Positions 23,390 through 63,197 are shown, counted from the first letter of the stretch. The stretch: DNA of 64,000 bases from Candidatus Bathyarchaeota archaeon (GCA_963733055.1 CAVTBR010000001.1:1440001-1504000), one strand, 5' to 3'. Made by a program: numbers and translations. The notes: generated from the letters alone by a model not told the origin.

Positions 23390-23414
23390 TGGTGCGGCTG
23401 TTCAGAATCGGACC
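23390..23414 (-). other. degenerate tRNA 3'-end (att-like) motif
   Basis: Minus strand reads GG-TCCGATT-CTGAA-CAGCCGC-A-CCA (T-loop + 5 + 7 + discriminator + CCA). Confidence 0.45.
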
Positions 23415-23520
23415 ACCGTCTCCTCCTTTGAAGGTGTGTGCGCACACCAAGGGATACTAAGGATACCACATTTTCTCAGCTTCACTAGCTTAATCTATAC
23501 TGCAAGCGCTAAATCATGGC

Positions 23521-25521
23521 ATGCGACTAGAATCAATTCGGACGCAAAACTACAAATCCATAATTGATTCAGGGACAGTTGAAATCGAGTCAGATATTAC
23601 AGCCCTCGTTGGAATGACCGGATCTGGGAAGACGTCATTTTTGGAGATGACCTCCGGGCTCGCTCCCGAAAAAGTCTTCCACGAGACTGAACTCCCCAAT
23701 GGATCGGATACAAAACAAAAATTTTCGAACGGCGAGTTAAGAGCCAGCGACATTCTTCAGCTATCTGCTATTTTTAGGATCGAGACTACGGATGGAATGC
23801 TGTTGCCGGAAGAATTTCGAGGCGTAGATAAAATTGAGATTAACCGGTACTTTGATGGACACTTCGAAATCAAGACAATGAAGGGTTCCATCAAGCAAGG
23901 ATCGATAACTCTAGAGCCTTTCAACACCAGAATTAGTACTATTCTTCAAAACACCAAGAACGACTTTACCAGCGCAGCCCCCAGGGTGCCGAATCTAGCA
24001 CAACAACAGGCCACATACTTCAAAGCAATTGATGATTTCTCTCAGACCAATCTAGCGAACCTCAAGGAACTTGATCTATCGTTGCAAACGGTGAGGAATG
24101 CAATGAACGGGATACCGAAGGATGGACCTTACCAGAACGAACTTAACCAAAGATTGTCTGAATTGCAAGCCCTACGCAACGAGATCTCTACCGCACTTGA
24201 ACAAGATCCCGTAAAAAAGCTACTAGATGTTATCCCAAAACCTGCCTACAAACGAGATGTCTTCGAGCTTGCTGACAAAATGTCATTAGACGAGTTTATC
24301 AGCAAACCAGAGAGTTCGAAGACTTTCCATTGTCTCGCCATAATTAGCGGTTTGAAGCCTAGTGGGGTGCAAAGAATTCGGAACGCTCCCAAGGCAGATC
24401 AGGAGGCTTACCTCCGAGTGATATCGAAGAGCCTGAGCGACCAGTTAAACAGTTTTTGGACCCAAGAGGAATATGATTTCCAAGTCGGTATAGGCGGTGA
24501 TCAACTGACTTTAACCGTAGCCGATCGAACAACACACAAGATTACTTCTGTTCTTGACGGAAGCGACGGATTCAAATGGTTTACATCATTCTTCTTAGAA
24601 ATGTCCGCTGACCTATCACTGAAATCGACTGCCGGCATCGTGCTGCTTGATAATCCCGCCACAAGTCTACACGACGAAGGTAAGGCGGATGTTCTGCGAT
24701 TCCTTAACAGCATGGCGGAGTCGGGAAAAATTCAGATTCTATACGCTACTCATGAGCGTCCGTTGGTAGACCCTTGGAGAATAGACCGCATTAGAGTTGT
24801 CGAAAAGAAAGAAGCAGGAACGAAGGTAGAAAGAGTAAGGGGCGACTCGAGATCGGATCTACTTGAGAGAGTAAGGCGAAATATAGGTTCACCCGCCAAG
24901 TACTCTTTGTTTGGGGCCCCCCGGACCGTCGCATTCGAAGGCATTAGCGACATGGATACCATCTCAGCCTTTAATGAATACTTGGAGCAACGAGGTTTGG
25001 CGCACTTACACAAGGATCTATTTTCAATTAATTGTATAAACGGAATAGACGGTGCTCCCGATTTTTGCAGGCTGTTCAAAACTCTAGGAATCGACTTTGT
25101 GATAGTGGTAGATAGCGGTCAGAAGACGCAGGACATCAGACAAAAGGTCCCTGACGAAGATTACAGCAGGCACTTCGTAGAGATCAAAGAGGTGATCGAC
25201 AGGGATGGGGACACCGAGGATCTCCTTGATCCGAACCTATACTATAGAGCGTTCAGGATGGCTTACGAGGACATCCTTGAACAAGTTCCAGAAGTTGAAG
25301 AACTAGATACGCTCGGTAGAAACCGGAAGACAGTAAACAAATACGACGATTGGTTCAGGAATAAGGGGAAGGAATTCAACAAGACCCTGGTCTCTCGACA
25401 AATGTTCAAGCTGCTTATGATGAATTCCAATCGCGATAAATCGGAGCAGGAACTCGTCGATAAATCAGTTGAAAATGTAGTCAAACTGTTTGATATCATA
25501 ACCGGAAGATTCGCACAGTAA
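23521..25521 (+). CDS. OLD-family ABC-ATPase/TOPRIM nuclease (GajA/OLD-like)
   Basis: IRTQNYKSI, Walker A GMTGSGKTS, GSDG, LLDNP..SLH, ATH, TOPRIM FEGISD..VVDSG..TEDLL. Confidence 0.8.
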   Translation: MRLESIRTQNYKSIIDSGTVEIESDITALVGMTGSGKTSFLEMTSGLAPEKVFHETELPNGSDTKQKFSNGELRASDILQLSAIFRIETTDGMLLPEEFRGVDKIEINRYFDGHFEIKTMKGSIKQGSITLEPFNTRISTILQNTKNDFTSAAPRVPNLAQQQATYFKAIDDFSQTNLANLKELDLSLQTVRNAMNGIPKDGPYQNELNQRLSELQALRNEISTALEQDPVKKLLDVIPKPAYKRDVFELADKMSLDEFISKPESSKTFHCLAIISGLKPSGVQRIRNAPKADQEAYLRVISKSLSDQLNSFWTQEEYDFQVGIGGDQLTLTVADRTTHKITSVLDGSDGFKWFTSFFLEMSADLSLKSTAGIVLLDNPATSLHDEGKADVLRFLNSMAESGKIQILYATHERPLVDPWRIDRIRVVEKKEAGTKVERVRGDSRSDLLERVRRNIGSPAKYSLFGAPRTVAFEGISDMDTISAFNEYLEQRGLAHLHKDLFSINCINGIDGAPDFCRLFKTLGIDFVIVVDSGQKTQDIRQKVPDEDYSRHFVEIKEVIDRDGDTEDLLDPNLYYRAFRMAYEDILEQVPEVEELDTLGRNRKTVNKYDDWFRNKGKEFNKTLVSRQMFKLLMMNSNRDKSEQELVDKSVENVVKLFDIITGRFAQ

Positions 25522-25578
25522 CCTCTGTTGTCGTGAAACCTTGCGTAGCTGGGACAGGCGAAATGTATGTGACATCAA

Positions 25579-25605
25579 TGGTGCTGGCAACTGAATTTGA
25601 ACCCG
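25579..25605 (-). other. degenerate tRNA 3'-end (att-like) motif
   Basis: Minus strand reads CGGG-TTCAAAT-TCAGT-TGCCAGC-A-CCA. Confidence 0.6.
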
Positions 25606-25871
25606 ATTTCTTGCGTGGTCTTCACTTCTGCACTCGAACTGCGCCCTACGATGGTGCGCATAGTCGTCGACCTATTACCGCGGGGAGATTAACCCAGACT
25701 ATTTGGACGATTTCGGAGTCTGGGTTAAGCCCATTTTCGAATCCCGTTCAACATGCTTGAGTAGAAAAACTGTAGCTTGATTAGTCTTCTCACGAGACTA
25801 GAAACGCGATACCACGTATGATTCTTATCTATGCAGATGCATGAGAACAACTAGATCTTTGAGGACTTAAC

Positions 25872-28250
25872 ATGTCGTCCCTATGGGACTATTTACTTCA
25901 AGCAATTTTGTCGTATGTCCCGCTAACTGTTGCTCTAATCACAATCCCATTTGCATATCAATACATTCGTGAGTTGCGCGCAAGAAAATCTCTCGAACAA
26001 GAAGTGAACCGTCTTAAATCGTTGGCAGAATTCAGCGAGCCAGCATCAACTCGAACTTATGGAAAACCGGTAGTGCCCTCTGTTCCTCGGGGGCTAGCTG
26101 TCGTATGTGCAGAGGGTGAATGTGTGCTATTCGCAGGCAGTAAGTTGGGTGCACTGGCAGGTTTGCCCACCTTGCGTGACGTGCTAGCACGAATTGTTGA
26201 GAGGGAGGAAGATGCCGGAGCAGAACGAGATTGGGATACCGTCAGACTGGCGCTCCAAACGGGCGACTTGATAGCGGCTGCTGAACTTATTTCAAACAGA
26301 GTCCCACGGAGTCGCGTCCTTCAAACAGTTAGAGACTTGTACGAACAGCGTGTGGCTGGAATACCGCCTACGTACAGGTCGCTCCAGCGGATTCCGTTTG
26401 CTGCTATTCTCACGACAGCGTGGGATAATCTCCTAGAGCAGGCGTTCCTCGACCGAAAGCCGGTCGTTCTTACAACCAGCGACGCTCCAACGTTCGCTCA
26501 ACTGCTTCGCCAGAATGAATTCATTATTCTGAAGTTGTATGGGGATCTGAAGAATGTGGAGAGTTTCAGTCTTTTTTCTGACGAATTTCGGCAGGGTATT
26601 CTCCGAAAGGAGCCACGGCTCCTTGAGTTCTTGAATTCAATCTGTCGATCCAAGACAATTCTGTTCCTCGGTGCGACATTACAGGAAGTTCGAGATTTTC
26701 TTACCAATTTCACGATTGAGGGGTCTGATCGGAGGCACTTCGCACTGGTTGAAGACCAAGCCGATATTGAAATGCAAAAGAGGCGTTTTCTCTCTAGATA
26801 CAATGTTCAACTCATGAGTTACCGGCCGTCGAGAGGTTCCCCGGAAGTCTCAGAGTTCATTGAGAAACTCGCTTTCGAGGTGCAAGCGAAATTCACGGAA
26901 ACCAAACCACGTGTCAAAATGCGTCCAGCCACACTGGATGAGCTTTCTCTGGAAAACATAGGGCCGTTTGAGAAACTCCAACTCAACCTAAACAGATCGT
27001 GGAATGTAATACTAGGGAATAACGGGTGTGGCAAATCTACATTGCTGAGGGCAATTGCTCTAGGGCTCTGCGGCAACGATGATAGGGCTAGGAGTGCGGC
27101 AGTGCAGCTGTTACGTTCAGGTGCGCAACGAGGATCAATTGAACTAGTCGTTGGAGGAGCAAAGTACAGGACAGAGCTGCTGCGCGAAGGCAACGAAGTA
27201 CGTGTCCGAAGTGACCGGCTGACTCCCCTCCAAACAGGAACGTGGCTTGTTCTCGGATTTCCTGCACTTCGCGGAGTTACAATCCAGGACCCCCGAGGAC
27301 CAACGGGTGATACGCCACGGAATCCAAATGCTGATGACGTGCTTCCGCTGGTTGGGGGAGTTCTTGACACTCGTCTTGATAGCCTCAAACAGTGGCTCGT
27401 GAATGTTCTGTTGCGTTCTGAAGCAGGGGAAGGAATTAGTCGATCCCAAGCTAGGACATACGCGAAATTACGAAGCGCATTCTTTGATCTCTTGAATGAA
27501 CTTACTCCTGGCATTAAGTTGGAGTTCAGCCGGGTTGACCGAAAATCGTGGCAAGTAATGGTCGAAACCATCGACGGAACTGTGCCCATTGACCTAGTAA
27601 GTCTAGGAACGAGCGCTATTATGAGTTGGATAGGGACATGGCTCCAGCGAGTGTACGAAATTTATCCTTCATCAGAAAACCCGACCATGGAACCGGCTCT
27701 TGTAATGATCGACGAGATTGATGCACATATGCATCCAGAGTGGCAGTATCACTTAGCTCCTAAACTAAAACAACTGTTCCCCAATTTGCAGGTTGTTGCA
27801 ACTACTCATTCACCGCTGATAGTTGGAAACCTCGAATCAAACGAAGTTTTCCGTCTCAGCAGGGAACAAACAAACCACCATCTCATACTGGAGAAAATGC
27901 CAGAATCTTTCGAAGGTTGGAGAGCGGATCAGATTCTGACAGGTCCAGCCTTCGGACTAGACACCACTATAGGACAGAGGACGGTGAAGCTAATTGATGA
28001 ATATTCGAGCTTACTTGGAAAGACCAAACGGTCTCCTCAAGAGGACGATAGAGTCAGAACTCTCGAATCGAAACTTGAGAAATCAATTCCGCTGCACCCT
28101 GAAACTGAGGAGGAGAGAGATATCGTCAGGATGATGGAGCAGTGGATGCTTCAGAGACTTCAGGCGGTGCCCGAGGAAAGAAGAAGAAAAATGCTGAAGG
28201 AAATCGAAAGATACCTGCCGCAGATTGGAACCGAAAAGGGGACAGGATGA
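25872..28250 (+). CDS. N-terminal TM + SIR2-like domain + PtuA-like ABC ATPase fusion
   Basis: TM residues ~5-30. SIR2-like CVLFAG..GLPT, ILTTAWD, LKLYGD, ILFLG. ATPase LENIGPF, GNNGCGKST, IDEIDAHMHPEWQ, TTHSP. Confidence 0.85.
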   Translation: MSSLWDYLLQAILSYVPLTVALITIPFAYQYIRELRARKSLEQEVNRLKSLAEFSEPASTRTYGKPVVPSVPRGLAVVCAEGECVLFAGSKLGALAGLPTLRDVLARIVEREEDAGAERDWDTVRLALQTGDLIAAAELISNRVPRSRVLQTVRDLYEQRVAGIPPTYRSLQRIPFAAILTTAWDNLLEQAFLDRKPVVLTTSDAPTFAQLLRQNEFIILKLYGDLKNVESFSLFSDEFRQGILRKEPRLLEFLNSICRSKTILFLGATLQEVRDFLTNFTIEGSDRRHFALVEDQADIEMQKRRFLSRYNVQLMSYRPSRGSPEVSEFIEKLAFEVQAKFTETKPRVKMRPATLDELSLENIGPFEKLQLNLNRSWNVILGNNGCGKSTLLRAIALGLCGNDDRARSAAVQLLRSGAQRGSIELVVGGAKYRTELLREGNEVRVRSDRLTPLQTGTWLVLGFPALRGVTIQDPRGPTGDTPRNPNADDVLPLVGGVLDTRLDSLKQWLVNVLLRSEAGEGISRSQARTYAKLRSAFFDLLNELTPGIKLEFSRVDRKSWQVMVETIDGTVPIDLVSLGTSAIMSWIGTWLQRVYEIYPSSENPTMEPALVMIDEIDAHMHPEWQYHLAPKLKQLFPNLQVVATTHSPLIVGNLESNEVFRLSREQTNHHLILEKMPESFEGWRADQILTGPAFGLDTTIGQRTVKLIDEYSSLLGKTKRSPQEDDRVRTLESKLEKSIPLHPETEEERDIVRMMEQWMLQRLQAVPEERRRKMLKEIERYLPQIGTEKGTG

Positions 28251-29071
28251 AGCACATATCTTTTGATCCGAACGCTCTAGTAGGCGCAGAACGTGATTGG
28301 TGGAGCAAGTGGGTTGAGAAAGCCAAAACAGCTAGATCACAGATACTCAAGGAAGCCAAAGCGGGCAAGATCCTTCATTACGACAATGAGGTTTGGAGCG
28401 AGCTCAAGTCTTGGCTGCTTGACAAGGTCTTCAATGGAAAGTGCGCCTACTGCGAATCAAAGTTCTCCGGGGTTTCGAGTTTCGGGGCTGCAGATCATTA
28501 CCGCCCGAAAGGGAAAGTGACTATCAGAGTTGCGGACAAGCAGGAGACGGTCATTTACCGCGGTCGTCCTCATCCGGGCTATTACTGGCTGGCTTACGAT
28601 TGGAGGAATATTCTCCCCGCATGCCCACCTTGCAACAGCGCGAAAGGGAAAGGAAGCCAGTTCCCCATTGCTGGAAGGTATGTGTTTGACCCTGGGAAAG
28701 GGCAAGATCCTGATGCTTTGGATAGAATAGAGAAACCTTTGCTATTGCATCCATGTCGAGATGATCCAGGCGAATACATCAGATTTGGAATCAAAGGTGC
28801 GGTAGCTGCGATCGATGGAAATGCAAGAGGCGATCAATCTATCTTGGTCTACAATCTGAGCCGCGATCGGCTCAGACAGAAAAGACAGCGTGCGCAAGAG
28901 GACGCGAGGCGCGCGTTTCTGTTCGCGGTAGAAAGCGGCACTTTGAAGAAGATGCTCGAGCCATATGAGCAGGGCGTCGAAGAGTACTCAGTCGCAGCTT
29001 TGGATTTTCTTCGCAACCATGTTTTCGAGAACATCGCTCTCGCGCTGCGACCGACTGAGAAAGAAACTTGA
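28247..29071 (+). CDS. PtuB-like HNH endonuclease
   Basis: KCAYCE, DHYRPK, YYWLAYDWRNILPACPPCN..K..FP, PLLLHP..DDP; ATGA overlap with the ATPase stop. Confidence 0.85.
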   Translation: MKHISFDPNALVGAERDWWSKWVEKAKTARSQILKEAKAGKILHYDNEVWSELKSWLLDKVFNGKCAYCESKFSGVSSFGAADHYRPKGKVTIRVADKQETVIYRGRPHPGYYWLAYDWRNILPACPPCNSAKGKGSQFPIAGRYVFDPGKGQDPDALDRIEKPLLLHPCRDDPGEYIRFGIKGAVAAIDGNARGDQSILVYNLSRDRLRQKRQRAQEDARRAFLFAVESGTLKKMLEPYEQGVEEYSVAALDFLRNHVFENIALALRPTEKET

Positions 29072-29270
29072 AAAGGACACTTGGCATATCACAACACACG
29101 TTAGCAACGGGACCGACGGTCAAGGTTGCCCATTGCATACGTTTACTCTTGCTGCTTCAATGTGACCGCTTTGCGAGGCCGGTCTCATTCCGAGATGTAT
29201 CTCCGGATCCTCCTGCCGTCTCATAACATCACGTAACCACGATCTCCGAAGGAGACTAAGGTATGTGGGC

Positions 29271-29297
29271 TGGTGATGCGGGCGACGGAATTTGAAC
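29271..29297 (-). other. degenerate tRNA 3'-end (att-like) motif
   Basis: Minus strand reads G-TTCAAAT-TCCGT-CGCCCGC-A-TCACCA; 16/17 identical to the motif at 39621-39637. Confidence 0.6.
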
Positions 29298-29493
29298 AAG
29301 CCAGGTGACAGTCTCTCCGCTTAGATTTCTCTATGATTATCAGCCGGTGACATTTGAATATCGAAAATGCGCTTTAATGGACACATTGCTCATATGGACA
29401 ACTATTTTTCGTCATATACTTCAGAGTCGGAAATAGTGGGGGTTCTACGTCTTCACTGTCTCAATTGACAACCTTGCTGAGTCTTCTTGCTCC

Positions 29494-31102
29494 TTATTCT
29501 GGAGGAATTTCCTTGAAAGCCAATGACAGATCGAGGCCTCTGTGTTTATTGTAGACTTTTGCCACGTAGAAGAGTACTAGGCCGGAGAGACCAACCCCGG
29601 CTACCGTCGCCATCGAAGCAGCTGAGTTCACTCCATATGCAGAATAGGCACCATACGCGTATGCGAGGAGGCCGAGGAAGATCACTGAGAGTATGCCGGC
29701 CAATGTGATTACCGGTACCCCAGCAATTTTGCCCTTGTGAGGAGACTGATCGAACAGACTTTTCCTGCGGTAGGGGAAAGCAACGCCGCTGATGGCAACG
29801 AGAATGAACGACATAATGATCTGTCCAAACACGAAACTTAGACCCAACAAAATCCCACCCACATAAGTGTACAGCAGAAGGACGACCTCAGCTCCAACAC
29901 ACGAGACCGCAATCGCGAACAAGGGCGTGTTCGTTCTGTCATTCACCTTTGAGAGGGCCATTGGTAAAGTGCGATCAAAGGACATCGCGAGGAACCATCT
30001 TGAGATTCCAAGAATGCACAGCGGTAGTTCAGCGAACAAGTAGAGGGTTACACCAACTCCGATTATGAGCATGACCCACGGAGCGTTGCTCACCATTACG
30101 CTGGCCAAAGTATTGTAGAATGGTGGTACGGGTAAGGTGTACGAGCTAGGCGCGTTATAGTAAGCGTAGCTTACCGCGTTCACGAAATCAACCGTACCGC
30201 TTCCGAGGTAGGATACTACCGCCGCGATCATCAAGACACCCGCGATTCCTAATGCGCCCAGAAGCCCGAACATAGAGTTCTTAGAAGCGGACTTAATTTC
30301 TCCGCTAACGACCTGCTGAAGCGAAATGTATGTGAACGCATAGGCTGCAAGCGGAACGATACCTAGTGTATTTGACCAGCTAAAGCCGGGGTTCGGTTCG
30401 AAACCTGACTTGCGCACCGTGTTGATGATTGTGTGGTAATAGTCAGGGTCCTTCGTGAACGGCAGACTAAAACGCGTTGAAACGAGAAATGAACACATCA
30501 ACCGGCGTAGAGACAAATACAACAACGATGATGAGAATACTAAGCAACCCCAAAACAACACCGATCCGGAGAACCAGAAAAGACCATTTTGTTCTCCACG
30601 CTGTAAGCAAACCTGCGGCAATCAGCAGTATTGTGCCAACTCCCGCCACCCAGTTTGGATCGAGCGCAGCTGTAGCCATACTCGAGAGCACTGGCGTGTT
30701 TGTTACTGCACCCATTACTCCGAAGCTTTCCGAAAATGCGATTGTCAAGACCCAGTTAGCACCGACGCCAAGGTAAAAGATGTACCAGATCGAATTTGTC
30801 CAACCATCCACGAACCCAAGCCATGGATGAACAACTCGGCTTACGAAGACATAATCGCCTCCAGAACGAGGCATCGCAGCAGACAGCATCGCGTACACGC
30901 ATGCAAGTGGAACAGTAGCAAGAGCAGTGATGAGTGTCGCCATTCCCATGTCGCCGCCTGGGAACGACCACGCGAAAGCAGTAACGTAAAAGACGCCAAG
31001 CACAATGTTGAAGTTGACCATATTGAGGGACATCGCGTCCCAAACACTTAGGTTTCGAACGAGCCCGGTTGCTTCACGAACGAAAATTCTGGGATTAGCC
31101 AA
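29494..31102 (-). CDS. APC-family amino acid permease, 1-nt frameshift near 30470
   Basis: [32 protein letters not shown]. An extra T in a T4 run splits the ORF. Confidence 0.85.
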
Positions 31103-49710: not shown

Positions 49711-49742
49711 ACTCTTGAAACTAAGAGAATGTGGCGTCCATA
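49711..49742 (+). repeat. 32-bp direct repeat, copy 2
   Basis: ACTCTTGAAACTAAGAGAATGTGGCGTCCATA. Confidence 0.8.
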
Positions 49743-49932
49743 GCACTCTACGGAGAAGTTTGCATGTCCGGATTCGGACCTTTTGGAGAACGTGAGAATG
49801 AACCGCTCGATAGCAACTGCTACACTCTTTGTCGGTGGGGCATAGGTTGGACGGAATCCATCAGGTCACGAAGCGTTCTGGAAGAACCCGTCTATCCCCT
49901 CTCGCGTAAAAACGAAGATGGAGGGAATCATA

Positions 49933-50208
49933 ATGTTTGAAGATGTGATTCCTTACAACTTGATTGGAATTGCGATTATCGTCACTTTCTGTTACTTGGG
50001 AATGAAGACAAGGAACGCACTCATGCAGCTTCTCAGTTTCATTATTGTCATCTTGGTTGGAGCCTCACTTGCAGGTTTCTTTGATCTCGTTCAGTCCGTT
50101 GTTGCTATAGGATTCGCAGGTGTTGCACTGGTGATACTGTTGGCGTTAGTCCTCGTCTACATGCTCGTGTCCAAGATTGGTAGTTGGATGAGAAGTGCAC
50201 CACCTTGA
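49933..50208 (+). CDS. small 3-TM membrane protein
   Basis: GGAGG upstream of ATG 49933; three hydrophobic segments. Confidence 0.65.
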   Translation: MFEDVIPYNLIGIAIIVTFCYLGMKTRNALMQLLSFIIVILVGASLAGFFDLVQSVVAIGFAGVALVILLALVLVYMLVSKIGSWMRSAPP

Positions 50209-50330
50209 ACGAAGAAGAGAGAAAACGCAGATTGCTCTGGATCATGATTGGCTTCTTAGTGCTAGTTGCAGGTGTTCTCATCTACGTCGCTAGGAGACTT
50301 CGTAGGCAGTCTGCTCAAAGATATGATTAA
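50205..50330 (+). CDS. unannotated 41-aa single-TM protein
   Basis: TTG overlaps the previous stop (TTGA); MNEEERKRRLLWIMIGFLVLVAGVLIYVARRLRRQSAQRYD. Confidence 0.6.
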   Translation: MNEEERKRRLLWIMIGFLVLVAGVLIYVARRLRRQSAQRYD

Positions 50331-50436
50331 CTTAAACGGTAACCGTTGAACGTCCTCACAGATCGCAGAATTCTAGATTCCCTCCTTGGAAGATGTGAGT
50401 CGTTTTCAGGCGGTCATCGATGCGGGGGGTGAGAGA

Positions 50437-52123: not shown

Positions 52124-52409
52124 GAGTGTGAGCCTGAACTATCCTAGCGATAGTTTGTATCCGGTTAGAAAGCTTTCTTTCCGTCATCCGCTTTCGGTTG
52201 TTTCAAGCTAGTCTCGTCTCTGAAAGAGAATAGATGCGACATTGAGGAGACAACGGCGAACACTATCAAAAACACTGCATCCCCAATACCAACTAAGGGA
52301 TTTCGAGTGGGAACTCTCGGAGGTAAACGAATCGGAGTGAGTGGTCGGTTGGTCTTGGATTATGGCTATGGACTCTGGCCTGGCTCTTCAACGTCAGAGA
52401 GGGTTTCTC

Positions 52410-52588
52410 CAAGAAAAGACGACATAATCCCACCACGAATGCACCTAGACCCTCTGCCCGACGGCAACTCGAAAGGGAAGGTAGTCACCACGGCAGACTT
52501 TGAGCAGATGCTCACAGAATACTACAACGTCTGGGGATGGGACGACCAAGGAAGCCCAAGGCGTCGACAATTCACGAACTCGGGCTAA
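52410..52588 (+). pseudogene. C-terminal fragment of aldehyde:ferredoxin oxidoreductase
   Basis: RKDDIIPPRM..DPLPDGNSKGKVV...FEQMLTEYYNVWGWDDQGSP. Confidence 0.75.
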
Positions 52589-52673
52589 CCGGATTGGTAA
52601 CATAACACTAGGTACGCTAATAACTGCAAGTCACTATCGCTAACTCCGCCTAGACGTCGATTCTTCATCCGCA

Positions 52674-54854: not shown

Positions 54855-56010
54855 ATGCTGCGTAAGCATTTTGTTTTGATGGTTGCTACATTATCTTTTG
54901 TCATGCTTGGTCTGGGGCTGTTTGGTTATCCGCCAATATCCAGGTACGTCATCCTGGATCTCAATCTCTCGCATACTGAGTCTGGGTATATCACTTCGGT
55001 CTTCGCGCTCACGTTCGCTTTGATGCAGGTGCCTGGCGGGTACTTGGCTGATAGGTTTGGGGGAGCCAAGACTCTCATGGTCTTCGCGGCGGTGGTGGGT
55101 GTGTCTCCCTTCATCTTCATCGTAGGGGATAGTTTTGTGATGGCCCTGGTCTTTCGTGCTCTGGCTGGCGGTGCGTGTGGTGTAACGTTTCCTTCCGCAG
55201 TTCGTGTCCTCTCATCCTGGTTCTCGGAGAGGGAGGTGGGTTCGGCTATGAGCGTTTTTGGGTTGGGTTATGGGATGTCCCAGATCGTTTCTTCCGCGTT
55301 CTTACCCTTACTGATTCTGGGCGCAGGATTGGAGGCCTCCCCTCATCTTTACCGCGCTGTTTTCTCTTCTCGTGATGGCGTTAGCCGTCTTTCCTGCTCG
55401 GTGGTCTTCTCCGATTGAGTCTTCGGTAAGTGTGAAGGTTGATGTTAGGGGGTTATTTACGCGTAATATGGTCGCTCTGGTTCTTCCTAATTTTGCCTCG
55501 CTCGCAGTAGTGGTGGGTATCTTTGCGTGGACGCCAGCATTTCTTACTTCGATTTTACATCTGTCGGATGAGTATGCTGGAATCATTCTGGGGTCGATCG
55601 GTGTGGCTAACATGTTGGGCGCCTATGCGGGCGGCTTGGCGAATAAGTGGTTGGGAAAGCGTCGGACCATTGCCCTGTCCATGATCCTAATGACGGGTTT
55701 CGCTGTGTTGTTGGGTACGGCAAATTCAGGTTTGGTTGCCGCGGTGTGGATTTCAGGCATTGGTTTCACGAGCATGTTGTATTTCGCAGCGGTCTTTGGC
55801 TTGATTCCTTACGCAGCGAAGCAGGGTCGTTCAGTAGCCGGCATAAGTTTTGGTGTCTTCAACATGTTGAGCAACATCGGGACCTTTGTCTCGCCAATTA
55901 TCGGGGGGTATATCTTAGACTCGACCGGGAATTTCTTCTTAGGATTTGCCTCAATAGGAAGCATCGGGGTTCTCGGAGTGCTCGGAGCAATAGTTCTCCG
56001 CACAGACTAG
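54855..56010 (+). CDS. MFS transporter, frameshift near 55326
   Basis: GGYLADRFG motif A; about 12 TM helices across two overlapping ORFs. Confidence 0.85.
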
Positions 56011-56036: not shown

Positions 56037-56621
56037 CTACGTAGTCTTGTCTGATTCGTATGTTATCAGGGTCTTTTCTTCAAGTGTGTCTTGCAGTTTT
56101 GAGATAGCTCTGTGAACCTCCGCCTCTTTCTTGGCGCCGGTACAAACGAGTTTTCCGCTTGAGAAGATTAGTATGACTGTTTTGGGGTCGTCCATTCGGT
56201 AGATAAGGCCGGGGAATTGTTCGGGTTCATACATGGTGCGTTTCAGTGAGTAGGTTGCCTTTTCCAAATCAATATGGCCGCCTAAACCTACCGACGCTAC
56301 CATATTCTGAATCTGAATCTCAGGCTTACCCAGAATGACGATCCCGTTACGGTTGAGCTCGTCCACAACCTTCATGACGGCCTTGCGAGCCTGCCGCTCC
56401 GACTTCGCCCCCGTGCAGACCATTTTACCCGAGCTGAAGATCAAGGTGGTGGCCTTCGGCTTCTTCAATCGATATACTAAACCAGGAAATTGTTCAGGCC
56501 GATACTCAACGCCAGGGAACACGCGCACAATAGAGTTCAGGTCAATATTCTGATGGAGCGTACCTGTCGCGACCACATTCTCGATGTTGATGAACGTTCT
56601 CCTTCCGACGCGAGATGCCAC
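56037..56621 (-). CDS. tbp: TATA-box binding protein
   Basis: Two repeats: IENVVA..YRPEQFPGL..LIFSSGKMVCTGAK and IQNMVA..YEPEQFPGL..LIFSSGKLVCTGAK. Confidence 0.98.
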   Translation of the reverse strand: MASRVGRRTFINIENVVATGTLHQNIDLNSIVRVFPGVEYRPEQFPGLVYRLKKPKATTLIFSSGKMVCTGAKSERQARKAVMKVVDELNRNGIVILGKPEIQIQNMVASVGLGGHIDLEKATYSLKRTMYEPEQFPGLIYRMDDPKTVILIFSSGKLVCTGAKKEAEVHRAISKLQDTLEEKTLITYESDKTT

Positions 56622-56651
56622 TCCAAAAACCCTTGATAAATGCCTGAAGGC

Positions 56652-56837
56652 TTACCACATATAAGCCCTAAGCCTAGAGAAGCCGAAGTCTTTGAATTCA
56701 GAATCCTCAACTAGACCGTCCATTAGATAATCGGTCTTTGTCTCCTCCTCGAGCAGTCGCATGGCGGTTCTGATGTCCAGCGGACAGCCGCACCGCGAGC
56801 AGAAAACACTAGCAAATGAATTTGACTCTTGACGAGG
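56652..56837 (-). pseudogene. C-terminal Zn-ribbon remnant of an archaeal tyrosine integrase
   Basis: Unlisted frame PRQESNSFASVFCSRCGCPLDIRTAMRLLEEETKTDYLMDGLVEDSEF, typical of archaeal integrase tails; adjoins a tRNA-end motif. Confidence 0.6.
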
Positions 56838-56857
56838 TTCCCGTCGTCGTGGTCTAA

Positions 56858-56882
56858 TGGCGCGGGGACCTGAAACCGAACC
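56858..56882 (-). other. degenerate tRNA 3'-end (att-like) motif
   Basis: Minus strand reads GG-TTCGGTT-TCAGG-TCCCCGC-G-CCA. Confidence 0.5.
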
Positions 56883-56948
56883 ATCCTCTTTGAGGCGTTT
56901 TAATGCTGACTTCCGGTTAGCCCATATTGGCGGAGTGGTATACGACCG

Positions 56949-57320
56949 GTGCTGATTTTCTTGGAGATTCCAGTTACAATCTACACGCTAAATCATCGAT
57001 TGATTTACGATTTACTTGGAGAGAGTAGGGGGAGGCTGGGGACGAGGAAGCAATTGACAGGTGACTTGGCTGTTAGGTACGACGGCGCCAAAATTAGAAC
57101 AGCTTTCGGACTCGCTGAAATGGTTCAGATAACGTTGATCGTTGCCGAGGATATCACTGATAGAGTTGGGGCGAGTCTTATCGTCGATTGGTTGCTCAAG
57201 AATCTTAACACGAAGGAAGCTCAAGTAACCAAATTAGAAATCGACAAGGTTGCCGTGGAACTTGACGAAGACGAGATCAAGAAAGTCGTGTTGGAGAAAA
57301 TCACAAAGACAAGCCAGTAA
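56949..57320 (+). CDS. hypothetical protein
   Basis: 123-aa ORF; start uncertain. Confidence 0.55.
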   Translation: MLIFLEIPVTIYTLNHRLIYDLLGESRGRLGTRKQLTGDLAVRYDGAKIRTAFGLAEMVQITLIVAEDITDRVGASLIVDWLLKNLNTKEAQVTKLEIDKVAVELDEDEIKKVVLEKITKTSQ

Positions 57321-57370
57321 ACTTTCTGCCTCTGACAACCGAGCAAAAGTAGATTAGTTTCTTCAGGAAA

Positions 57371-57556
57371 TTGGGTTTGGTTCTCAGCTTGTTTGTTGCT
57401 GTCTTCCTCATATCGATTGGCATCTACCCGTCCGCTGAAGGATTTTTGAACATCCTGTATTGGCGTCCTTCCCATCCGCCCTGGCTGTTCCAGGCCGGGA
57501 GAGTCCTGCGCGGGTTAATCGGCGTTAGCATGATGATTGTAGGTCTTATGCACTAA
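57371..57556 (+). CDS. small 2-TM protein
   Basis: Hydrophobic 61-aa ORF just upstream of the UbiA gene. Confidence 0.5.
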   Translation: MGLVLSLFVAVFLISIGIYPSAEGFLNILYWRPSHPPWLFQAGRVLRGLIGVSMMIVGLMH

Positions 57557-57567
57557 GGCGTCATCTA

Positions 57568-58470
57568 GTGGACAACGTCAAGGTTGGACTCGAGCGGTTC
57601 TATGAAGCAAATTATTTCGTGCGAAACGCGTTTGTGCGAATCGTAAGATTCCATGAGTACGGACCGTGCTACTTGGTTTCTGCCTTGGCTTGTGCATTCG
57701 TGGCCAGATTTCCTGTCGATAGCAAAATTCTGCCCGTGCTTTTCTTCGTTGCAGCCTCTTCCATTTTTGGTTTTGTGATTAACGACATTGCCGATGCAGG
57801 ACTTGACAAAAGAGCTGGCAAACCAAGGAACCCTGTAGCCTCGGGTGAATTGTCGGCGGCTGCGGCTTGGGCCTTCGTAGTAGTTCTCTTGGGCGTGGCG
57901 ACTCTATCCATCTATCTGCTTAATTTTCTGAATAGGTTGCTTGGGATCCTGGTGATTTTGCTGTTTGGTGGCTATTCTTTCGGTCTAAGGATAAAGGCTA
58001 GGCCTGGTCTTGATGTTGTCTCCCACGCTTCCTGGAATGCAACATATGGAGTAATGGCTTACTCCGTTTATCGTCCGCTTGATTTCGTGGGAGCGGGGCT
58101 GACGGGTATCCTCTTCCTATTGTCCATGTTGGCAGAGCTTGTCAATCAGATTAGAGATCATGATTCGGACAGAGACATGATAAGGACAACCGTGACGTTG
58201 ATTGGCAAGAAGAGAGCGCTGAAGGGATGTGTTGTACTCCTTTTCTTGGTCCTCGCGTTATTTGTCAGCGTTGTGTTAATTAGCGGACTTCCTTGGATTC
58301 TCCTCGCTTTCTCGCCCTCCATCATATTCCTTCTCGTGCCCATATTCGACGCACTGCGGTGTGAGCAAAAGGAGCAGGCACTAATGCCCTCGTTCGTGAT
58401 GAGGGGCACTGTAATCGGACTGCTCTTGTTCGTCACCTATGTCGCTGTAAAGATCGCCGGTGCCGGCTGA
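57568..58470 (+). CDS. UbiA-family prenyltransferase
   Basis: INDIADAGLDK..K.RNPVASG, YS, NQIRDHDSD..TT. Confidence 0.88.
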   Translation: MDNVKVGLERFYEANYFVRNAFVRIVRFHEYGPCYLVSALACAFVARFPVDSKILPVLFFVAASSIFGFVINDIADAGLDKRAGKPRNPVASGELSAAAAWAFVVVLLGVATLSIYLLNFLNRLLGILVILLFGGYSFGLRIKARPGLDVVSHASWNATYGVMAYSVYRPLDFVGAGLTGILFLLSMLAELVNQIRDHDSDRDMIRTTVTLIGKKRALKGCVVLLFLVLALFVSVVLISGLPWILLAFSPSIIFLLVPIFDALRCEQKEQALMPSFVMRGTVIGLLLFVTYVAVKIAGAG

Positions 58471-58631
58471 TTAGGTCAAATCGTCAAAATTGTGTGTGTG
58501 GTATAGTTGGTGCGCGTACACACACTTCGCCGCGCCCCTTCGTGGCGAAATGGTAGGATGTGTTTGCTCATTTTATGGTAGTATAGAAGTATAGGATACT
58601 GGTCGCTACAGTATTTCATGAATGCGCGGCG

Positions 58632-59942
58632 TCAGCGGCGCGAATGTCGATAGTTTGAAGGGCGGTGGTGCCTTGGGTATCGTGATCTTCCCGCAAATTC
58701 GCGACGAGTTTCACCAACAGATATCCATGGTTCCTCTCTCCCACCAGTGAATACGCCTGGGCCAGAGGTGAAGCTAAGTTGCTCAATGCGGTCGTCTGCC
58801 ATTGATTGTATTGCTCGAAAGTCGCTATTTTGCTCGGCGGATACTATCGTCACTGCGGTTCCCGTCTTGCCCGCTCGTCCAGTTCGGCCAATCCTGTGGA
58901 AGTAGGTATACGGGTTCTCAGGAACATCATAGTTGATAATGTGTGTAACTCCGTCAATATCCAAGCCTCTTCCAGCTAGGTCGGTGGCAACTAGGATACG
59001 GCTTTGACCGCTTCGAAACGCCTTCATTGCTCCATCGCGTTGATGTTGCGAGAGGTCACCGTTCAGCGCTGTTGCATCCTGATTTCTTCTCCGGAGTGAA
59101 TGGTTCAACCAAAATGTGTTCCGTTTGGTTCGACAGAAAACTATGGCACGATGCACTTCTTTGTCCTGCAGAATTCTCAGCAGCGCATCAAGTTTTCTTT
59201 CCCGGTCCACATGGTAATAGTATTGGCTGATCTCCCTGACGTTGAGATCCTCCGGTTCGATCAGAACTTCGCGAGGATTCTTCATATGTCTACGGGCAAG
59301 TTTCAGTACATCCTTGGGCATCGTTGCGGAGAAGAACGCGATTTGACGTTTACTTCTAGTCTTAGTTAGAATATGCTCAACGTCACGAATGAAACCCATG
59401 TCCAGCAACCTGTCAGCCTCATCCAAAACAACGTACTGGACTTTGTCAAGGTGAATGGATCCGCGTTCCATATGATCGATGACTCGCCCGGGAGTTCCAA
59501 CTATAATCTGTGGGCAATCCTCCAACGCGCGGATTTGAACATTAATTGATTGGCCACCATAGATCGCGAGGGCACGCTTGCGGGTGAATCTGCCATACGA
59601 GTTAATGTCGCGTGCTACTTGTACCGCAAGCTCGCGGGTTGGAACTAGCACCAGCGCCTGAATATTCAGATTCTTTTCGTCAACGATCTCTAGGAGCGGT
59701 AGCCCGAAGGCTGCGGTCTTTCCAGTTCCGGTATGGGCTTGACCAATCACATCGATTCCGTGCTGCAGAAGCGGAATCGTTGCTTCTTGGATCGGAAACT
59801 GTCGCTCGAACCCAAGTGCCTTGATAGCATCCAATATTTCTGGGCTTAAACCCAGTTTCTCGAAAGTACTCGTAGGTTTTTTCTCCTCATCTTCCACGTC
59901 GCGGGTCCAAGATCTAGACCGAAGACTGGTTCCGTCATTCAC
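58632..59942 (-). CDS. DEAD-box RNA helicase
   Basis: AHTGTGKT, PTRELA, TPGR, DEAD, SAT, HRIGRTGR. Confidence 0.97.
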   Translation of the reverse strand: MNDGTSLRSRSWTRDVEDEEKKPTSTFEKLGLSPEILDAIKALGFERQFPIQEATIPLLQHGIDVIGQAHTGTGKTAAFGLPLLEIVDEKNLNIQALVLVPTRELAVQVARDINSYGRFTRKRALAIYGGQSINVQIRALEDCPQIIVGTPGRVIDHMERGSIHLDKVQYVVLDEADRLLDMGFIRDVEHILTKTRSKRQIAFFSATMPKDVLKLARRHMKNPREVLIEPEDLNVREISQYYYHVDRERKLDALLRILQDKEVHRAIVFCRTKRNTFWLNHSLRRRNQDATALNGDLSQHQRDGAMKAFRSGQSRILVATDLAGRGLDIDGVTHIINYDVPENPYTYFHRIGRTGRAGKTGTAVTIVSAEQNSDFRAIQSMADDRIEQLSFTSGPGVFTGGREEPWISVGETRREFAGRSRYPRHHRPSNYRHSRR

Positions 59943-60277
59943 TTATCGTCGGAACGAGATTTCGGTTGTTTCCTCAGACTTCGGCGACTTCGATCAGTTG
60001 CAGCAAGAAGAAGAACATGCGGTCAATCGTTGCAAATGACTCGTACCTCTCGTTCTCGACAACCAACTTTGTGCATTCTCGCCTTGGTTCAATATAAGGA
60101 TGGATTGGGATAGAAAGTAATGCCTTCTCTATGTCTCAGCCAGTACCACGGTAACATGTTCAAACGCTGGTGACGCTCGAATAAATTGAGTCCTCCTTGT
60201 TCACGGCCCCGCTATTCCAACGCATAGGTTAATCCATCTTAGCAGGGTTCGAATCGACGAGTAGGATCGGATCAGAA

Positions 60278-61084
60278 TTGCAAAACGGAACCACCGACTT
60301 GGCCCCGGGTCGTTTTAATTCTTCTGAATTCGGTCCCGGCAAGAACCTCGCGCAATTCGTACTCAAACTTAGGAATGAACCTGGAATTCTAGAATCGCTA
60401 TCGGCGATCGCTACAAGAAACAGGGTCAACGTCCTCTCCGGCTCCCACACCGCACCCCCAAATTCAGACCACGCTTCCTGGAGCTTCTTCGCCGACATGA
60501 CCAATTCGAAACAGTCAGCTGAAGGGCTTGCGAAGGAATTCTCTTCGCTCCCAGGTACGTTGGATGTGAGATTCAAAACTGCAACGACGCTTATCGTCGA
60601 CACGTTTCATTTCCCCCTCTATGCTGGCGGCCAACAGGTCATGGTATTGGCGACTCGTTCACTCGCGGCCATATTCCAACGAGTAAAGGACTTGCTGGGA
60701 GCAGGGCCGGCTACGAGCGTATTATTGCATCAGATTGGCCAAGCAACCGGAAAGACAAATTACGAAATAATGCTGTCCAAGCTCGGTCGAGAGAATTTGT
60801 TGGGTTCCACTTCAGAGGTCGCGGGCCTATGGTCCGCGGCAGGCTGGGGAAGGCAACGAATACTAGACCTGGACTTAGAGGGGATGACGGCAAGAATCGA
60901 GATTCAAGGTAACTTCGAATGCAGCTCATACGGAAACGGATCCGAAACCCCACAAAGCCAATTCGTACGTGGATGCCTCGACGGGTATTGGTCAGCCTTC
61001 TTCGGGAAGAGAATCAATGTGGAGGAAACGCGATGCGTTGCGAAAGGTGACGCAGCCTGTGAGTTCCTCCTCACCCCCACATGA
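60278..61084 (+). CDS. ACT-like + V4R domain protein
   Basis: LRNEPGIL ACT-like start; GWG, FEC, FVRGCLDG, EETRCVAKGDAACEF. Confidence 0.85.
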   Translation: MQNGTTDLAPGRFNSSEFGPGKNLAQFVLKLRNEPGILESLSAIATRNRVNVLSGSHTAPPNSDHASWSFFADMTNSKQSAEGLAKEFSSLPGTLDVRFKTATTLIVDTFHFPLYAGGQQVMVLATRSLAAIFQRVKDLLGAGPATSVLLHQIGQATGKTNYEIMLSKLGRENLLGSTSEVAGLWSAAGWGRQRILDLDLEGMTARIEIQGNFECSSYGNGSETPQSQFVRGCLDGYWSAFFGKRINVEETRCVAKGDAACEFLLTPT

Positions 61085-61497: not shown

Positions 61498-62083
61498 CTT
61501 CTCGCCTAATCTCTTCTAGCCTTCGCTTCATTTCATCGAAGCTTCTTTTGCTGGTGCCAGTCAAGGACCCTATCGCAGACTCTAGGAGAACTACTTGTGG
61601 CAGTCTTGCTTCTCGGTATGGAAGGGGTTGGCGTCTCTTCAGTCTGTGTAGCCTGGCTTCAAGGTTTTCTTTCTTGAGTTCGAATTCGTTGGCCAATCCC
61701 TTATCGAGGGTCACCATCTTCTCACAGCCGACGAAAGTCCCTGACAGGTTTGTTCCGAAGGTTGCATATGCGAGCACTTTCGCGTCCTCACCAGTCAGTG
61801 CGGTGGCTTTCCTTAAGATTCTGAGCCACTCGTTGAATGGATTTGAACGATACAGCGTGTCACTGTTGGCGATGATTGCCTTCGAGATTTGCGGATTTCT
61901 CAGAATTCTCGTGAGTATGTTGTAGGTTTCGAGGGTAACGTAGACTTCAACGTTCTGGGACTTTGCGGTTGCGAGAATCGATACAACTAACTCTTGCTCA
62001 TTTGTAAGTGGGTGGCCTAAATTTGATCTGATGATGGATTCAAACCATCGACGCACGATGTTCTTATCGACGAGAACCCGCAA
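61490..62083 (-). CDS. PIN-like protein with an antitoxin-like C-terminal tail
   Basis: VLVDKN, EDAKVLAYA, VTLD; ends IGSLTG..FDEMKRRLEEIRREDA. Confidence 0.65.
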   Translation of the reverse strand: MRVLVDKNIVRRWFESIIRSNLGHPLTNEQELVVSILATAKSQNVEVYVTLETYNILTRILRNPQISKAIIANSDTLYRSNPFNEWLRILRKATALTGEDAKVLAYATFGTNLSGTFVGCEKMVTLDKGLANEFELKKENLEARLHRLKRRQPLPYREARLPQVVLLESAIGSLTGTSKRSFDEMKRRLEEIRREDA

Positions 62084-62375
62084 TCGTTTTCACGACGACT
62101 TCGGATTTCTTAGAGTAGGCTTCTGCCTCTCGGTACCAGTTCTCCCACAACTCTGTTCGGTCTCTTTCAGACATGGCCATGTACCTCGATACGGTGAGGT
62201 CTCTTGTCAAGGGTTCCTCTCCCGTAAGGACGCGATGTGTCATTTCTAGCCGGGTGAAAGCAAGCATCAGGCTCCTCAAAGTCTCGCTGGGTTTCAACCC
62301 CAGGGTCTCACACTGCTTCTCGAAAGCCTTCTTCAACTTCGGTGCTACTCGTACGACGACCTGACTCTGCGTCAA
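62064..62375 (-). CDS. ribbon-helix-helix antitoxin-like protein
   Basis: VVVRVAPKLKKAFEKQCETLGLKPSETLRSLM. Confidence 0.75.
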   Translation of the reverse strand: MTQSQVVVRVAPKLKKAFEKQCETLGLKPSETLRSLMLAFTRLEMTHRVLTGEEPLTRDLTVSRYMAMSERDRTELWENWYREAEAYSKKSEVVVKTIAGSRR

Positions 62376-62469
62376 CTCCCAGATTCACGATTGCAATGCA
62401 AAGGCAATGCAACCTTAAAAATCTGACCCACGGTGAGACGCCGTCGCATTATCGAAGTTCGTACTACGG

Positions 62470-63006
62470 TTAGGCGTGGTTCTTGAGTTTCTGCATGTAG
62501 TGTTCTCGGAATTTTCTGACTTTCGGCGCGATAACCATTTGGCAGTAAGGTTGGCGGGGGTTGTTCTCGAAGTAATCATGATGATAGGTTTCGGCTCGGT
62601 AGAAGGCCTGGAGCGGTTGAATTTGTGTCACTATGGGCGCGTTCCATAGTTTTGCCGCCGTCACCTCCGCCACGACTCTTTGTGCTGTGGACTTCTGTTG
62701 GTCGCTGTGGTAGAAGATTGCTGACCGGTACTGGGTCCCCGCATCTGCTCCCTGTCTGTTCAGGGTGGTTGGGTCGTGGACTGTGAAGAAGATTTTCAGA
62801 AGTTCTTCGTAGGAGATTATTGCCGGATCGAAGGTTACCTGAACCGCTTCCGCGTGCCCCGTTCTACCAGTGCAGACATGCTCATAGGTGGGGTTTGGCA
62901 CGGTACCTCCCGCGTACCCCGGCTCAACCTTCTCTACACCCTTCAACTCCTTGAATACCGCTTCCGTGCACCAGAAACATCCCCCAGCGAACGTAGCAAC
63001 CTCCAT
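62470..63006 (-). CDS. msrA: peptide methionine sulfoxide reductase A
   Basis: GGCFWC, TGHAE, HDPTTLNRQG, QYRS, AETYH. Confidence 0.97.
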   Translation of the reverse strand: MEVATFAGGCFWCTEAVFKELKGVEKVEPGYAGGTVPNPTYEHVCTGRTGHAEAVQVTFDPAIISYEELLKIFFTVHDPTTLNRQGADAGTQYRSAIFYHSDQQKSTAQRVVAEVTAAKLWNAPIVTQIQPLQAFYRAETYHHDYFENNPRQPYCQMVIAPKVRKFREHYMQKLKNHA

Positions 63007-63172
63007 GACCCAAATCACACGCCCCTATTGCTCAAGCCGCCAAATAAGCGAAGGATTGAACAGATCAAGCGAAACGTAGAATCCAATTCAGCAAGTTTGG
63101 CTGTTCTAACGAATCTCTCTGTCTGGGTGGCGGAATCGTGCTCCCTCTCGCCTGCCGAATATTGTGTGAATA

Positions 63173-63197
63173 TTGTGTGGCCGGGGGATTTGGACCC
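63173..63197 (-). other. degenerate tRNA 3'-end (att-like) motif
   Basis: Minus strand reads GGG-TCCAAAT-CCCCC-GGCCAC-ACAA, one base short of canonical spacing. Confidence 0.45.

Follow-up and report, generated by a model that had tools for sequence, protein, structure and literature searches.

tRNA 3'-end-like repeats at the module boundaries of a Bathyarchaeota genomic island as possible pseudo-attachment sites

We analyzed a 64,000-nucleotide (nt) stretch of the genome of a Candidatus Bathyarchaeota archaeon (GCA_963733055.1, CAVTBR010000001.1:1440001-1504000), referred to as the window, in which an initial annotation had pointed out eight intergenic motifs resembling the 3' end of a transfer RNA (tRNA) and had proposed that cassettes were repeatedly captured there. 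We found that the motifs are mostly copies of a short intergenic repeat that is specific to soil Bathyarchaeia and mimics the last 23 bases of a tRNA. These copies, which we call units, sit at the seams between modules of an accessory island. We read them as pseudo-attachment sites at which modules accrete and reshuffle, a reading to which we give a probability of slightly under one half (about 0.48). The window corresponds to C1:1440001-1504000 of a three-contig, 2.88-Mb genome with a G+C content of 50%, and its host is an archaeon, since the window encodes TBP, TrmB, a V4R protein and a CdvB paralogue. A literature search, with supplements outside its scope, turned up no description of these repeats.

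All eight motif sequences are present at the positions and on the strands reported for them. The generic spacing of a T-loop, 13 bases and CCA is not unusual, however: with at most one mismatch, TTCRAAT-N13-CCA matches the window 15 times, whereas shuffled windows average 9.9 ± 2.9 matches and 7 in 100 of them have 15 or more, so that the pattern occurs at chance level. The three copies described as converging on one sequence are real, in that their consensus with at most three mismatches gives four matches where 0.01 is expected, and none of 100 shuffles reaches four. Because this consensus was derived from the window itself, the test is circular, and as an independent test we used two hidden Markov models (HMMs) built solely from copies in other genomes. 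These relatives-only HMMs match a total of eight places in the window, strongly (21-23 bits) at 25577-25604, 29264-29297 and 39608-39637, and more weakly (9.7-12.1 bits) at 39803-39827, 56851-56882, 58493-58525, 23434-23445 and 20526-20549. No match of at least 14 bits was obtained in 100 shuffled windows, and none of at least 9.7 bits in 60 shuffled windows searched one by one. As a single group the eight motifs therefore hold only in part: those at 23390, 25579, 29271, 39618, 39803 and 56858 are members of the family, and those at 63173 and 38591 are not. Two members, at 20515-20562 and 58470-58532, had gone unnoticed. Also overlooked were how far the island extends (20421-62470) and, at about 39556-39600, a second tandem module.

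Beyond the window, the family was first uncovered by a fuzzy search and then by nhmmer. In the whole host genome, the two relatives-only HMMs give 18 and 26 matches at an E-value (E) below 0.01, and 44 merged sites at E<0.05. Thirty-six of these 44 sites lie outside open reading frames (ORFs) of at least 100 codons, where 16% of the DNA is found. The sites are also clustered, 38 of the 44 having a neighbor within 12 kb, compared with a mean of 13 and a maximum of 25 in 500 random draws. In a collection of species genomes, a 21-base repeat pattern was found in 93 stretches, nearly all of them in metagenome-assembled genomes (MAGs) titled Bathyarchaeia or Bathyarchaeota and a few in other bins. 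A pattern consisting of the arm plus the heptamer had no match in viral contigs.

A full unit measures approximately 60-75 bp. Read on the strand that shows CCA, it consists of an ACGACG-rich arm (typically ACGACGAACGAyGACGG), the heptamer TTCAAAT, five poorly conserved bases, yGCyCGC-A-CCA, and a trailer of about seven bases (typically yTAGACC) that leads into a (CA)n run, often with a T- or A-run after it. In a second type of center, which we call GT-type, (GT)n takes the place of the heptamer side, and in a palindromic arrangement one CGCACCA center stands between two inverted arms. The 96 centers found in other genomes comprise 42 of the heptamer type, 29 of the GT type and 25 further variants. 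The information content per position is 1.81 bits for the heptamer versus 0.57 for the five bases that follow it. In 42 units from relatives, these five bases form 2.71 of 5 T-stem pairs, compared with 2.76 ± 0.13 with shuffled partners. This agrees with the earlier observation that the T-stem strands pair poorly and indicates that the units are not T-arms. Pairing of the arm with the five variable bases, or of the inverted CGCACCA with the 3' end, was likewise not consistent among copies inspected by eye. The core of the unit is of the "...CGC-A-CCA" type, as in the tRNAs called Gly(TCC) and Arg(TCT) by ARAGORN. Although inverted arms flank a center, no consistent unit ends or target duplications could be defined, and a clean insertion of a unit alone was not found at loci compared with relatives. 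Of the possible identities, the anatomy of the unit suits an attachment (att)-like site better than it suits a tRNA or a motif arisen by chance: the acceptor-CCA and the heptamer are kept, the stem strand is free, and conservation extends to both flanks, as would be expected for the arms of an attP-type site. Apart from this, in one sub-family of units (L012:6330-6410, L027, L052 and L099), the unit has in front of it a pair of conserved hairpins, GGGG-ATTCTGA-CCCC and CCGG-N10-CCGG, as well as a 5' strand complementary to the acceptor-like strand. Its predicted fold is tRNA-sized, with three helices and 16 pairs, one of them compensatory, from four sequences.

Within the window, seven of the eight copies are on the minus strand (Table 1), and four of them follow plus-strand genes at short distances, as expected from the reported placement at block boundaries. 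U1 lies 14 nt after the stop at 23376, U2 58 nt after that of the OLD/GajA-like gene (25521), U3 200 nt after that of the PtuB-like HNH gene (29071), and U4 84 nt after that of ParB (39534). The truncated unit scores 9.7 bits (E 0.048 per 64 kb) and lies approximately 100 nt inside the left island edge. U1 is made up of an inverted CGCACCA with CACAC, an arm, the heptamer TCCGATT, five bases, CAGCCGC-A-CCA, and ATGATAC-CACAC. A relatives-only HMM matches just its 5' part (23434-23445, 9.7 bits), and the E of 1.8e-4 that it obtained from a seed HMM is circular because that HMM contained U1, so its membership rests on the flanking part and on an architecture judged by eye. U3 lacks the upstream arm. 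U7 has the sequence (GT)n-CGCGCACCA-ACTATAC-(CA)n-ATTTTGACGA and matches C2:520822-520866 at 87%. With regard to the two motifs outside the family, their resemblance to a tRNA end is probably due to chance, as the generic pattern occurs at chance level, 38591 was matched by neither relatives-only HMM and 63173 has neither an HMM match nor a CCA. The 63173 motif nevertheless has four of five T-stem pairs and lies near the end of the msrA homology with relatives (about 63000-63073), and it may be a decayed tRNA remnant.

Table 1. Units and other features of the window (positions counted from its first base)
Feature	Position	Strand	Motif in initial annotation	Remarks
Truncated unit	20515-20562	-		CACCA-CTAGACC-(CA)n-TAAAA, without T-loop part
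U1	23372-23452	-	23390	Diverged full unit; 14 nt after ORF 22579-23376
U2	25560-25622	-	25579	21.0 bits; E 1.4e-5 per window, 6.4e-4 per genome
U3	29258-29306	-	29271	23.1 bits; E 3.1e-6 per window
U4	39556-39650	-	39618	21.9 bits; includes second, degenerate tandem module
U5	39790-39842	+	39803	11.7 bits; E 0.011 per window; sole plus-strand copy
U6	56826-56892	-	56858	12.1 bits; E 0.009 per window
U7	58470-58532	-		GT-type center; 11.4 bits; between UbiA and DEAD-box helicase
Motif outside the family	63150-63205	-	63173	No HMM match; without CCA; outside island
Copy of V4R-domain gene 3' end	39627-39797	+		171 nt, 88% identical to original at 60905-61076; between back-to-back U4 and U5
Tyrosine integrase remnant	56664-56831	-		Last 56 codons, zinc-ribbon region; about 25 nt downstream of U6
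Accessory island, 42 kb	20421-62470			Between stop codons of sufD (+) and msrA (-); holds every supported unit of the window
OLD/GajA-like ABC-ATPase with nuclease region	23521-25521	+		Pfam AAA_15; PADLOC Old 9.5e-12, GajA 1.2e-11
Septu-like pair	25872-29071	+		SIR2-PtuA fusion 25872-28250; PtuB HNH nuclease 28142-29071

The units of the window are confined to accessory DNA. In 18 of 18 same-genus relatives the match to the Suf genes of the window extends no further than 20420, and window positions 20421-54800 are nearly without a DNA match in 22 genus members, the exceptions being short matches to the units themselves. Six relatives carry sufD and msrA on one contig, with a gap of 4-235 nt in three (235 nt in G016 and 63 nt in G007) and of 13-43 kb in the other three (G004, G015 and G018). 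In the most compact case, G013:C5, the homologues of window 17544-20419 (sufD) and 62477-62999 (msrA) are 4 nt apart, and by sequence reading the two stop codons are separated by approximately 10 nt. The stretch from 20421 to 62470 is an island at a recurrent hot spot and qualifies as a flexible genomic island. By eye, no unit was seen at the island edges in G018.

A similar relationship was observed at L007, a 16-kb region that is syntenic with G013:C14 and G032:C81 save for two inserts found only in G000. The larger insert (2.76 kb; an unknown ORF, a glyoxalase, a KaiC-like gene and DinB) holds all four HMM matches of the region, at three unit places, and the 15-kb stretch of G013 has none. 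The DinB gene occurs in other contexts in G013, G009 and G032; its 3' flank carries a unit in the first two of these genomes and none in G032. In G014:C39, a 1.5-kb gene lies between two units, each followed by the same 45-nt stretch, and a lone unit at C1:601404 stands where homology to G013 begins, beside an inverted gene. The expectation that the motifs would coincide with breakpoints among relatives is thus borne out insofar as units lie in accessory DNA absent from relatives and coincide with synteny breaks; the empty sites are without a unit.

One junction involves the heptamer itself. In an alignment, the V4R copy between U4 and U5 joins U4 inside the heptamer, where the V4R gene reads TTCGAAT. 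The heptamer of U4 is thus a hybrid, TTCGAAAT, and its loop has an odd eight bases. Judged from the alignment, this one case would be the trace expected of site-specific exchange at a look-alike site. In the same interval, immediately to the left of 39704, the sequence of a run X1 contig diverges from that of the window; 45 bases there are unmatched and partly like local sequence, which may represent a variant junction or a paralogous copy.

The motifs had been described as tRNA-3'-end-like, and the units are indeed linked to tRNA genes. Directly after the tRNA gene at C3:367674-367766 (Gly(TCC), ARAGORN intron mode) we observed a (CA)n trailer, an arm and a pseudo 3' end in which the heptamer and the seven acceptor bases are the same as in the tRNA, whereas only one of the five middle bases is shared and the discriminator is different. 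Likewise, a more degenerate pseudo 3' end follows the Arg(TCT) gene at C1:343392-343231, and in relatives chains of one to three units follow the same tRNA end (L046, L051, L107, L114 and L125). U6, with the sequence TTCGGTT-TCAGG-TCCCCGC-G-CCA-TTAGACC-ACGACGACGG, is like the tRNA-Phe end in the heptamer and acceptor and unlike it in the middle five bases, just as was seen for the pseudo end that follows the Gly-type tRNA. While unit chains start at tRNA genes elsewhere, the array in the window has no anchoring tRNA gene. As had been reported, no full tRNA is present in the window, either by ARAGORN or by Rfam (RF00005) at its gathering threshold, and Rfam searches at E≤1 on four unit-rich loci gave only a genuine tRNA and one chance match.

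The tRNA genes of the host are themselves unusual, being intron-rich, several with more than one intron. Across the 2.88-Mb genome, ARAGORN detects 7 tRNAs by default and 33 in intron mode and Rfam 13 above threshold, indicating that many host tRNAs escape detection; the Arg(TCT) gene mentioned above is altogether missed by Rfam. In most of the genuine genes examined, CCA is encoded and the T-stem is G+C-rich. The ordinary appearance of att sites in this genome is provided by the 3' half of tRNA-Phe, of which five near-identical copies with an intact T-arm (C1:989767, 211243, 1423443, 1428532 and 1332613) are classical integration scars. One of these copies adjoins a truncated integrase (C1:1427652-1428260), 11.5 kb to the left of the window. 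A separate search for split or hidden tRNAs, by way of 5' halves with a matching acceptor strand, gave only coding-looking matches, and the idea was rejected.

Units also adjoin integrase genes and remnants. The integrase remnant that had been noted is real and lies just downstream of the 56858 motif, with 64-70% identity by tblastn (E 1e-17) to residues 378-433 of a 439-residue integrase in G033:C158 and residues 258-313 of a 320-residue integrase in G014:C2. The former is its closest full-length relative and lies directly after a tRNA-Phe gene. On a provirus contig from IMG/VR, a 363-residue Phage_integrase with a zinc ribbon, encoded at L126:136-1227, is followed by 260 nt, a unit and a KaiC-like gene; no second att copy was found in this contig, which is a fragment. 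Homologues of this provirus integrase occur in 10 of 22 genus relatives. When the host's own integrases were compared with the window by tblastn, no match below E 0.1 was obtained. Several of the six PF00589 matches in the host genome are in frames that run through a tRNA 3' end, which fits the SSV-type or "suicidal" integrases described in the available portion of an archaeal study (PMC8371274). A candidate integrase remnant at 39.5-40.7 kb was rejected, as ORF 40059-40664 encodes the CdvB paralogue and ORF 39538-39840 has no family match.

In our preferred reading, the units would be derived from the tRNA-3'-end targets of tyrosine integrases and would still be recognized like them. Integrases of proviruses or plasmids, supplied in trans, would recombine at units, with strand exchange probably in or beside the TTCAAAT heptamer. 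Modules of 1-10 kb would be added serially and later shuffled, deleted or inverted between units, the outcome being a co-oriented array in a flexible island. Units with both flanks between modules would then be the junctions of tandemly integrated elements, a tRNA with its trailer representing the left junction and an arm with a pseudo end the right junction. The earlier proposal of repeated cassette capture at tRNA-derived sites thus gains from the position of units at seams between modules (the OLD/GajA-like gene, the SIR2-PtuA/PtuB pair, a 10-kb metabolic block and the integrase remnant) and from their tRNA and integrase links, and loses from the lack of an intact integrase and from unit-free empty sites.

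Several observations weigh against pseudo-attachment sites. No intact integrase is present in the window, all six PF00589 matches of the genome being elsewhere, and apart from the remnant the zinc-ribbon integrase family was not found in the host genome at E≤1e-10. Among 17 integrase loci of relatives, examined with flanks of approximately 1.5 kb, only one has a unit match. The locus with the best integrase homologue, L131, which abuts a CTP-synthase-like gene (from the translated sequence read by eye), has no unit in its available DNA, and the related provirus contig L151 has none in the 180 nt upstream of its integrase. No unit was seen by eye at the empty sufD/msrA sites in G013, G016 and G007, and none is present at the empty insert site of L007 in G013 and G032; the 1.75-kb L007 insert (GNAT, TMEM175) also lacks a recognizable unit. 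Low-depth contigs of one DNA run, which cover 28 of 30 bins, contain no excision joints and are uninformative on excision. No resident tRNA has the usual acceptor strand of the units: among 45 candidate host 3' ends with a good T-arm, a few of them probably spurious, one has TGCyCGC, and this one is itself a unit (C1:1506441). To judge from these sequences, the units appear to match no resident tRNA. The five bases at the T-stem positions are the least conserved part of the unit (0.57 bits), whereas the att duplicates of the tRNA-Phe 3' half keep a perfect T-arm, indicating that the units did not arise simply by integration into a resident tRNA. Other islands of the host genome contain units in mixed orientations, and chains without cargo, palindromic arrangements and simple-repeat tracts are more reminiscent of the repeat types considered next. 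Finally, the association of half of the units with KaiC-like genes, described below, could mean that the element is linked to a gene family.

These points lead to the serious alternative that the units are a non-autonomous repeat resembling MITEs (miniature inverted-repeat transposable elements) or repetitive extragenic palindromes (REPs), long ago derived from a tRNA 3' end and its trailer. Such a repeat would have spread by itself through transposition, slippage or gene conversion in tolerant spacers, homologous recombination between copies would have produced the rearrangements, and its position at seams would merely reflect that accessory islands are richest in free spacers. Such a repeat accounts no less well than attachment sites do for the cargo-less tandem chains of 2-4 units (period 55-75 nt), the palindromes with inverted arms around a CGCACCA center, the variants with (CA)n, poly-G or poly-C and the empty sites that lack a unit, and the mixed orientations elsewhere, the weak conservation of the middle five bases and the lack of a matching tRNA suit a free-running repeat. 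We nevertheless consider this origin somewhat unlikely, because no terminal inverted repeat and target duplication can be defined, seven of the eight window copies are co-oriented, units adjoin integrase genes or remnants and genuine tRNA ends, and one junction lies inside the heptamer at a look-alike site, as for site-specific rather than homologous exchange.

The KaiC-like genes raise another alternative. These are 31 loci in the host genome encoding proteins of approximately 240 residues with weak KaiC (PF06745) matches (for example L007:7306-8043 and L008:3409-4140); three of the sequences, when inspected, showed no GxxxxGK[ST] P-loop at the expected place. Of the 30 KaiC-like loci that were tested, 14 have a unit, and 22 of the 44 host units are found no more than 200 nt from one of these loci; three of the genes end approximately 35 nt before a center. 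The units could in this case be cis-regulatory or RNA elements (a promoter, terminator, leader or small structured RNA) of the KaiC-like paralogues and a few other genes, copied along with them. The (CA)n and T-run 22-25 nt before the heptamer might correspond in position to archaeal TATA-to-start spacing, and the sub-family with hairpins may fold into a tRNA-sized, three-helix shape. That shape is predicted from only four sequences with one compensatory pair, however, and the units have no Rfam match. The window contains eight units and none of the 31 KaiC-like loci, its units point against the neighboring genes, and in relatives a KaiC-like match was found in the 200-nt flanks of 6 of 93 unit loci, a lower bound as the flanks are short. 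Regulatory or RNA elements are therefore quite improbable, and the KaiC-like genes may be favored cargo, favored targets or owners of units. That the units are pieces of genuine fragmented tRNA genes (split, permuted or multi-intron) is very improbable. Many host tRNAs do escape detection and the genuine ones encode CCA, but the units have no T-stem partner, their middle five bases are A/T-rich where the T-stems in most of the 45 candidate 3' ends are C-rich, and dozens of near-identical copies per genome, together with tandem chains, do not suit a tRNA set.

The cargo of the island consists in part of defense genes. The assignment of the Septu-like pair is based on Pfam (SIR2_2 and AAA_21), NCBIfam (PtuA 3.6e-38, PtuB 1.3e-10) and PADLOC (PtuA 5e-63, PtuB 2e-40). 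Amino-acid metabolism is represented in the island by a 10-kb block that includes a TrmB-family regulator and ParB. Further cargo genes encode the CdvB paralogue, a pair of CHAT proteases, an E1-like ThiF protein and a large terminase standing alone, together with MFS, TBP, UbiA and a DEAD-box helicase. The CHAT-domain proteases (44526-46223 and 50744-52123) enclose small unknown ORFs and the E1-like ThiF gene (47876-49144; PADLOC E1-E2, 4e-15), and window 44526-52123 is possibly a ubiquitin-like conjugation defense module. The solitary large terminase (52674-54092; PHROG 2, 7e-47) lies beside an aldehyde:ferredoxin oxidoreductase fragment (52307-52588), and window 52307-54092 resembles the remains of a provirus. 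Many genus members carry TBP, UbiA and DEAD-box helicase genes that are 85-93% identical to those of the window (56037-60104) but have different neighbors, and TBP is present in several paralogous copies per genome. At the right edge of the helicase module (window 60104), which is common to all relatives, there is no unit. ParB (38702-39534) is split into two overlapping frames. One contig of the DNA run has an extra G after 38953, with which ParB reads through (278 codons, one stop), and an assembly indel is the probable cause of the split. Artefacts of this kind may also underlie the interrupted genes for MFS (54855-56010) and an amino-acid permease (29494-31102).

If the units work as recombination sites, they would explain how defense and metabolic genes are shuffled in abundant uncultured soil archaea without an integrase for each island, and would represent a second cassette site of independent evolutionary origin, made from a tRNA end. 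A bolder form of the pseudo-attachment reading, which we regard as rather unlikely, would make them a native cassette-exchange system of soil Bathyarchaeia. In this system a tRNA-3'-end mimic of approximately 70 bp would be the recombination site and the heptamer the crossover, the five variable bases would be free or would set specificity, and provirus or plasmid integrases would act in trans. The site would be a tRNA-derived archaeal counterpart of attC that assembles defense modules, metabolic modules and dozens of KaiC-like genes. Should the units be no more than a repeat family of one lineage, they are still useful as markers of the seams of islands in Bathyarchaeia MAGs; assemblies are likely to break at them, and they caution that look-alikes of tRNA ends in intron-rich archaeal genomes can be neither tRNA genes nor simple att scars.

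Among the systems with which the units can be compared, a paper on Bathyarchaeia viruses mentions integrases and, in its available portion, no such sites (PMC10848311). A preprint, in its available portion, reports that archaeal MAGs contain integrons with attC sites (10.1101/2022.02.06.479319). As in integron arrays, the units are short, partly palindromic sites that follow single genes or small groups, mostly in one orientation, with small stress and defense cargo. The initial annotation had called the array integron-like, which holds as an analogy only: no IntI-type integrase (no IntI-specific model being run), attI or common promoter was found here, and the sites are derived from a tRNA end. 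The core of attC has the consensus GTTRRRY, which by eye the GTTCAAA of the unit heptamer does not fit. Accretion of integrase-less elements in bacteria is described in the available portion of PMC5704250. Cis-mobilizable elements (CIMEs) and integrative mobilizable elements (IMEs) that accrete with integrative conjugative elements (ICEs) share with the island integrase-less modules bounded by att-like sites that an integrase could join and move in trans. CIME accretion is bacterial, uses identical att sites at a defined gene end and has been demonstrated experimentally, whereas in this island it is inferred. MITEs, REPs and bacterial interspersed mosaic elements (BIMEs) are likewise short, abundant, intergenic, sometimes palindromic or tandem, and lineage-specific, but the units differ from them in their tRNA-end mimicry, their adjacency to tRNAs and integrases, their co-orientation in this island and their lack of definable terminal repeats or target duplication. 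In archaea, tandem integration at tRNA genes, a preference for tRNA 3' ends and an attB that reaches beyond the gene are all covered in the available portion of PMC8371274. The tandem arrays at tRNA genes, whether built by archaeal SSV-type and classical tyrosine integrases or found as bacterial tRNA-linked islands, have in common with the window tRNA-3'-end-like direct repeats between accessory blocks and an integrase remnant beside one of them. Compared with such arrays, the array described here lacks an anchoring tRNA, a resident tRNA match and a T-stem strand, and its units are distinguished by conserved non-tRNA flanks, chains without cargo, palindromes and dozens of copies per genome.

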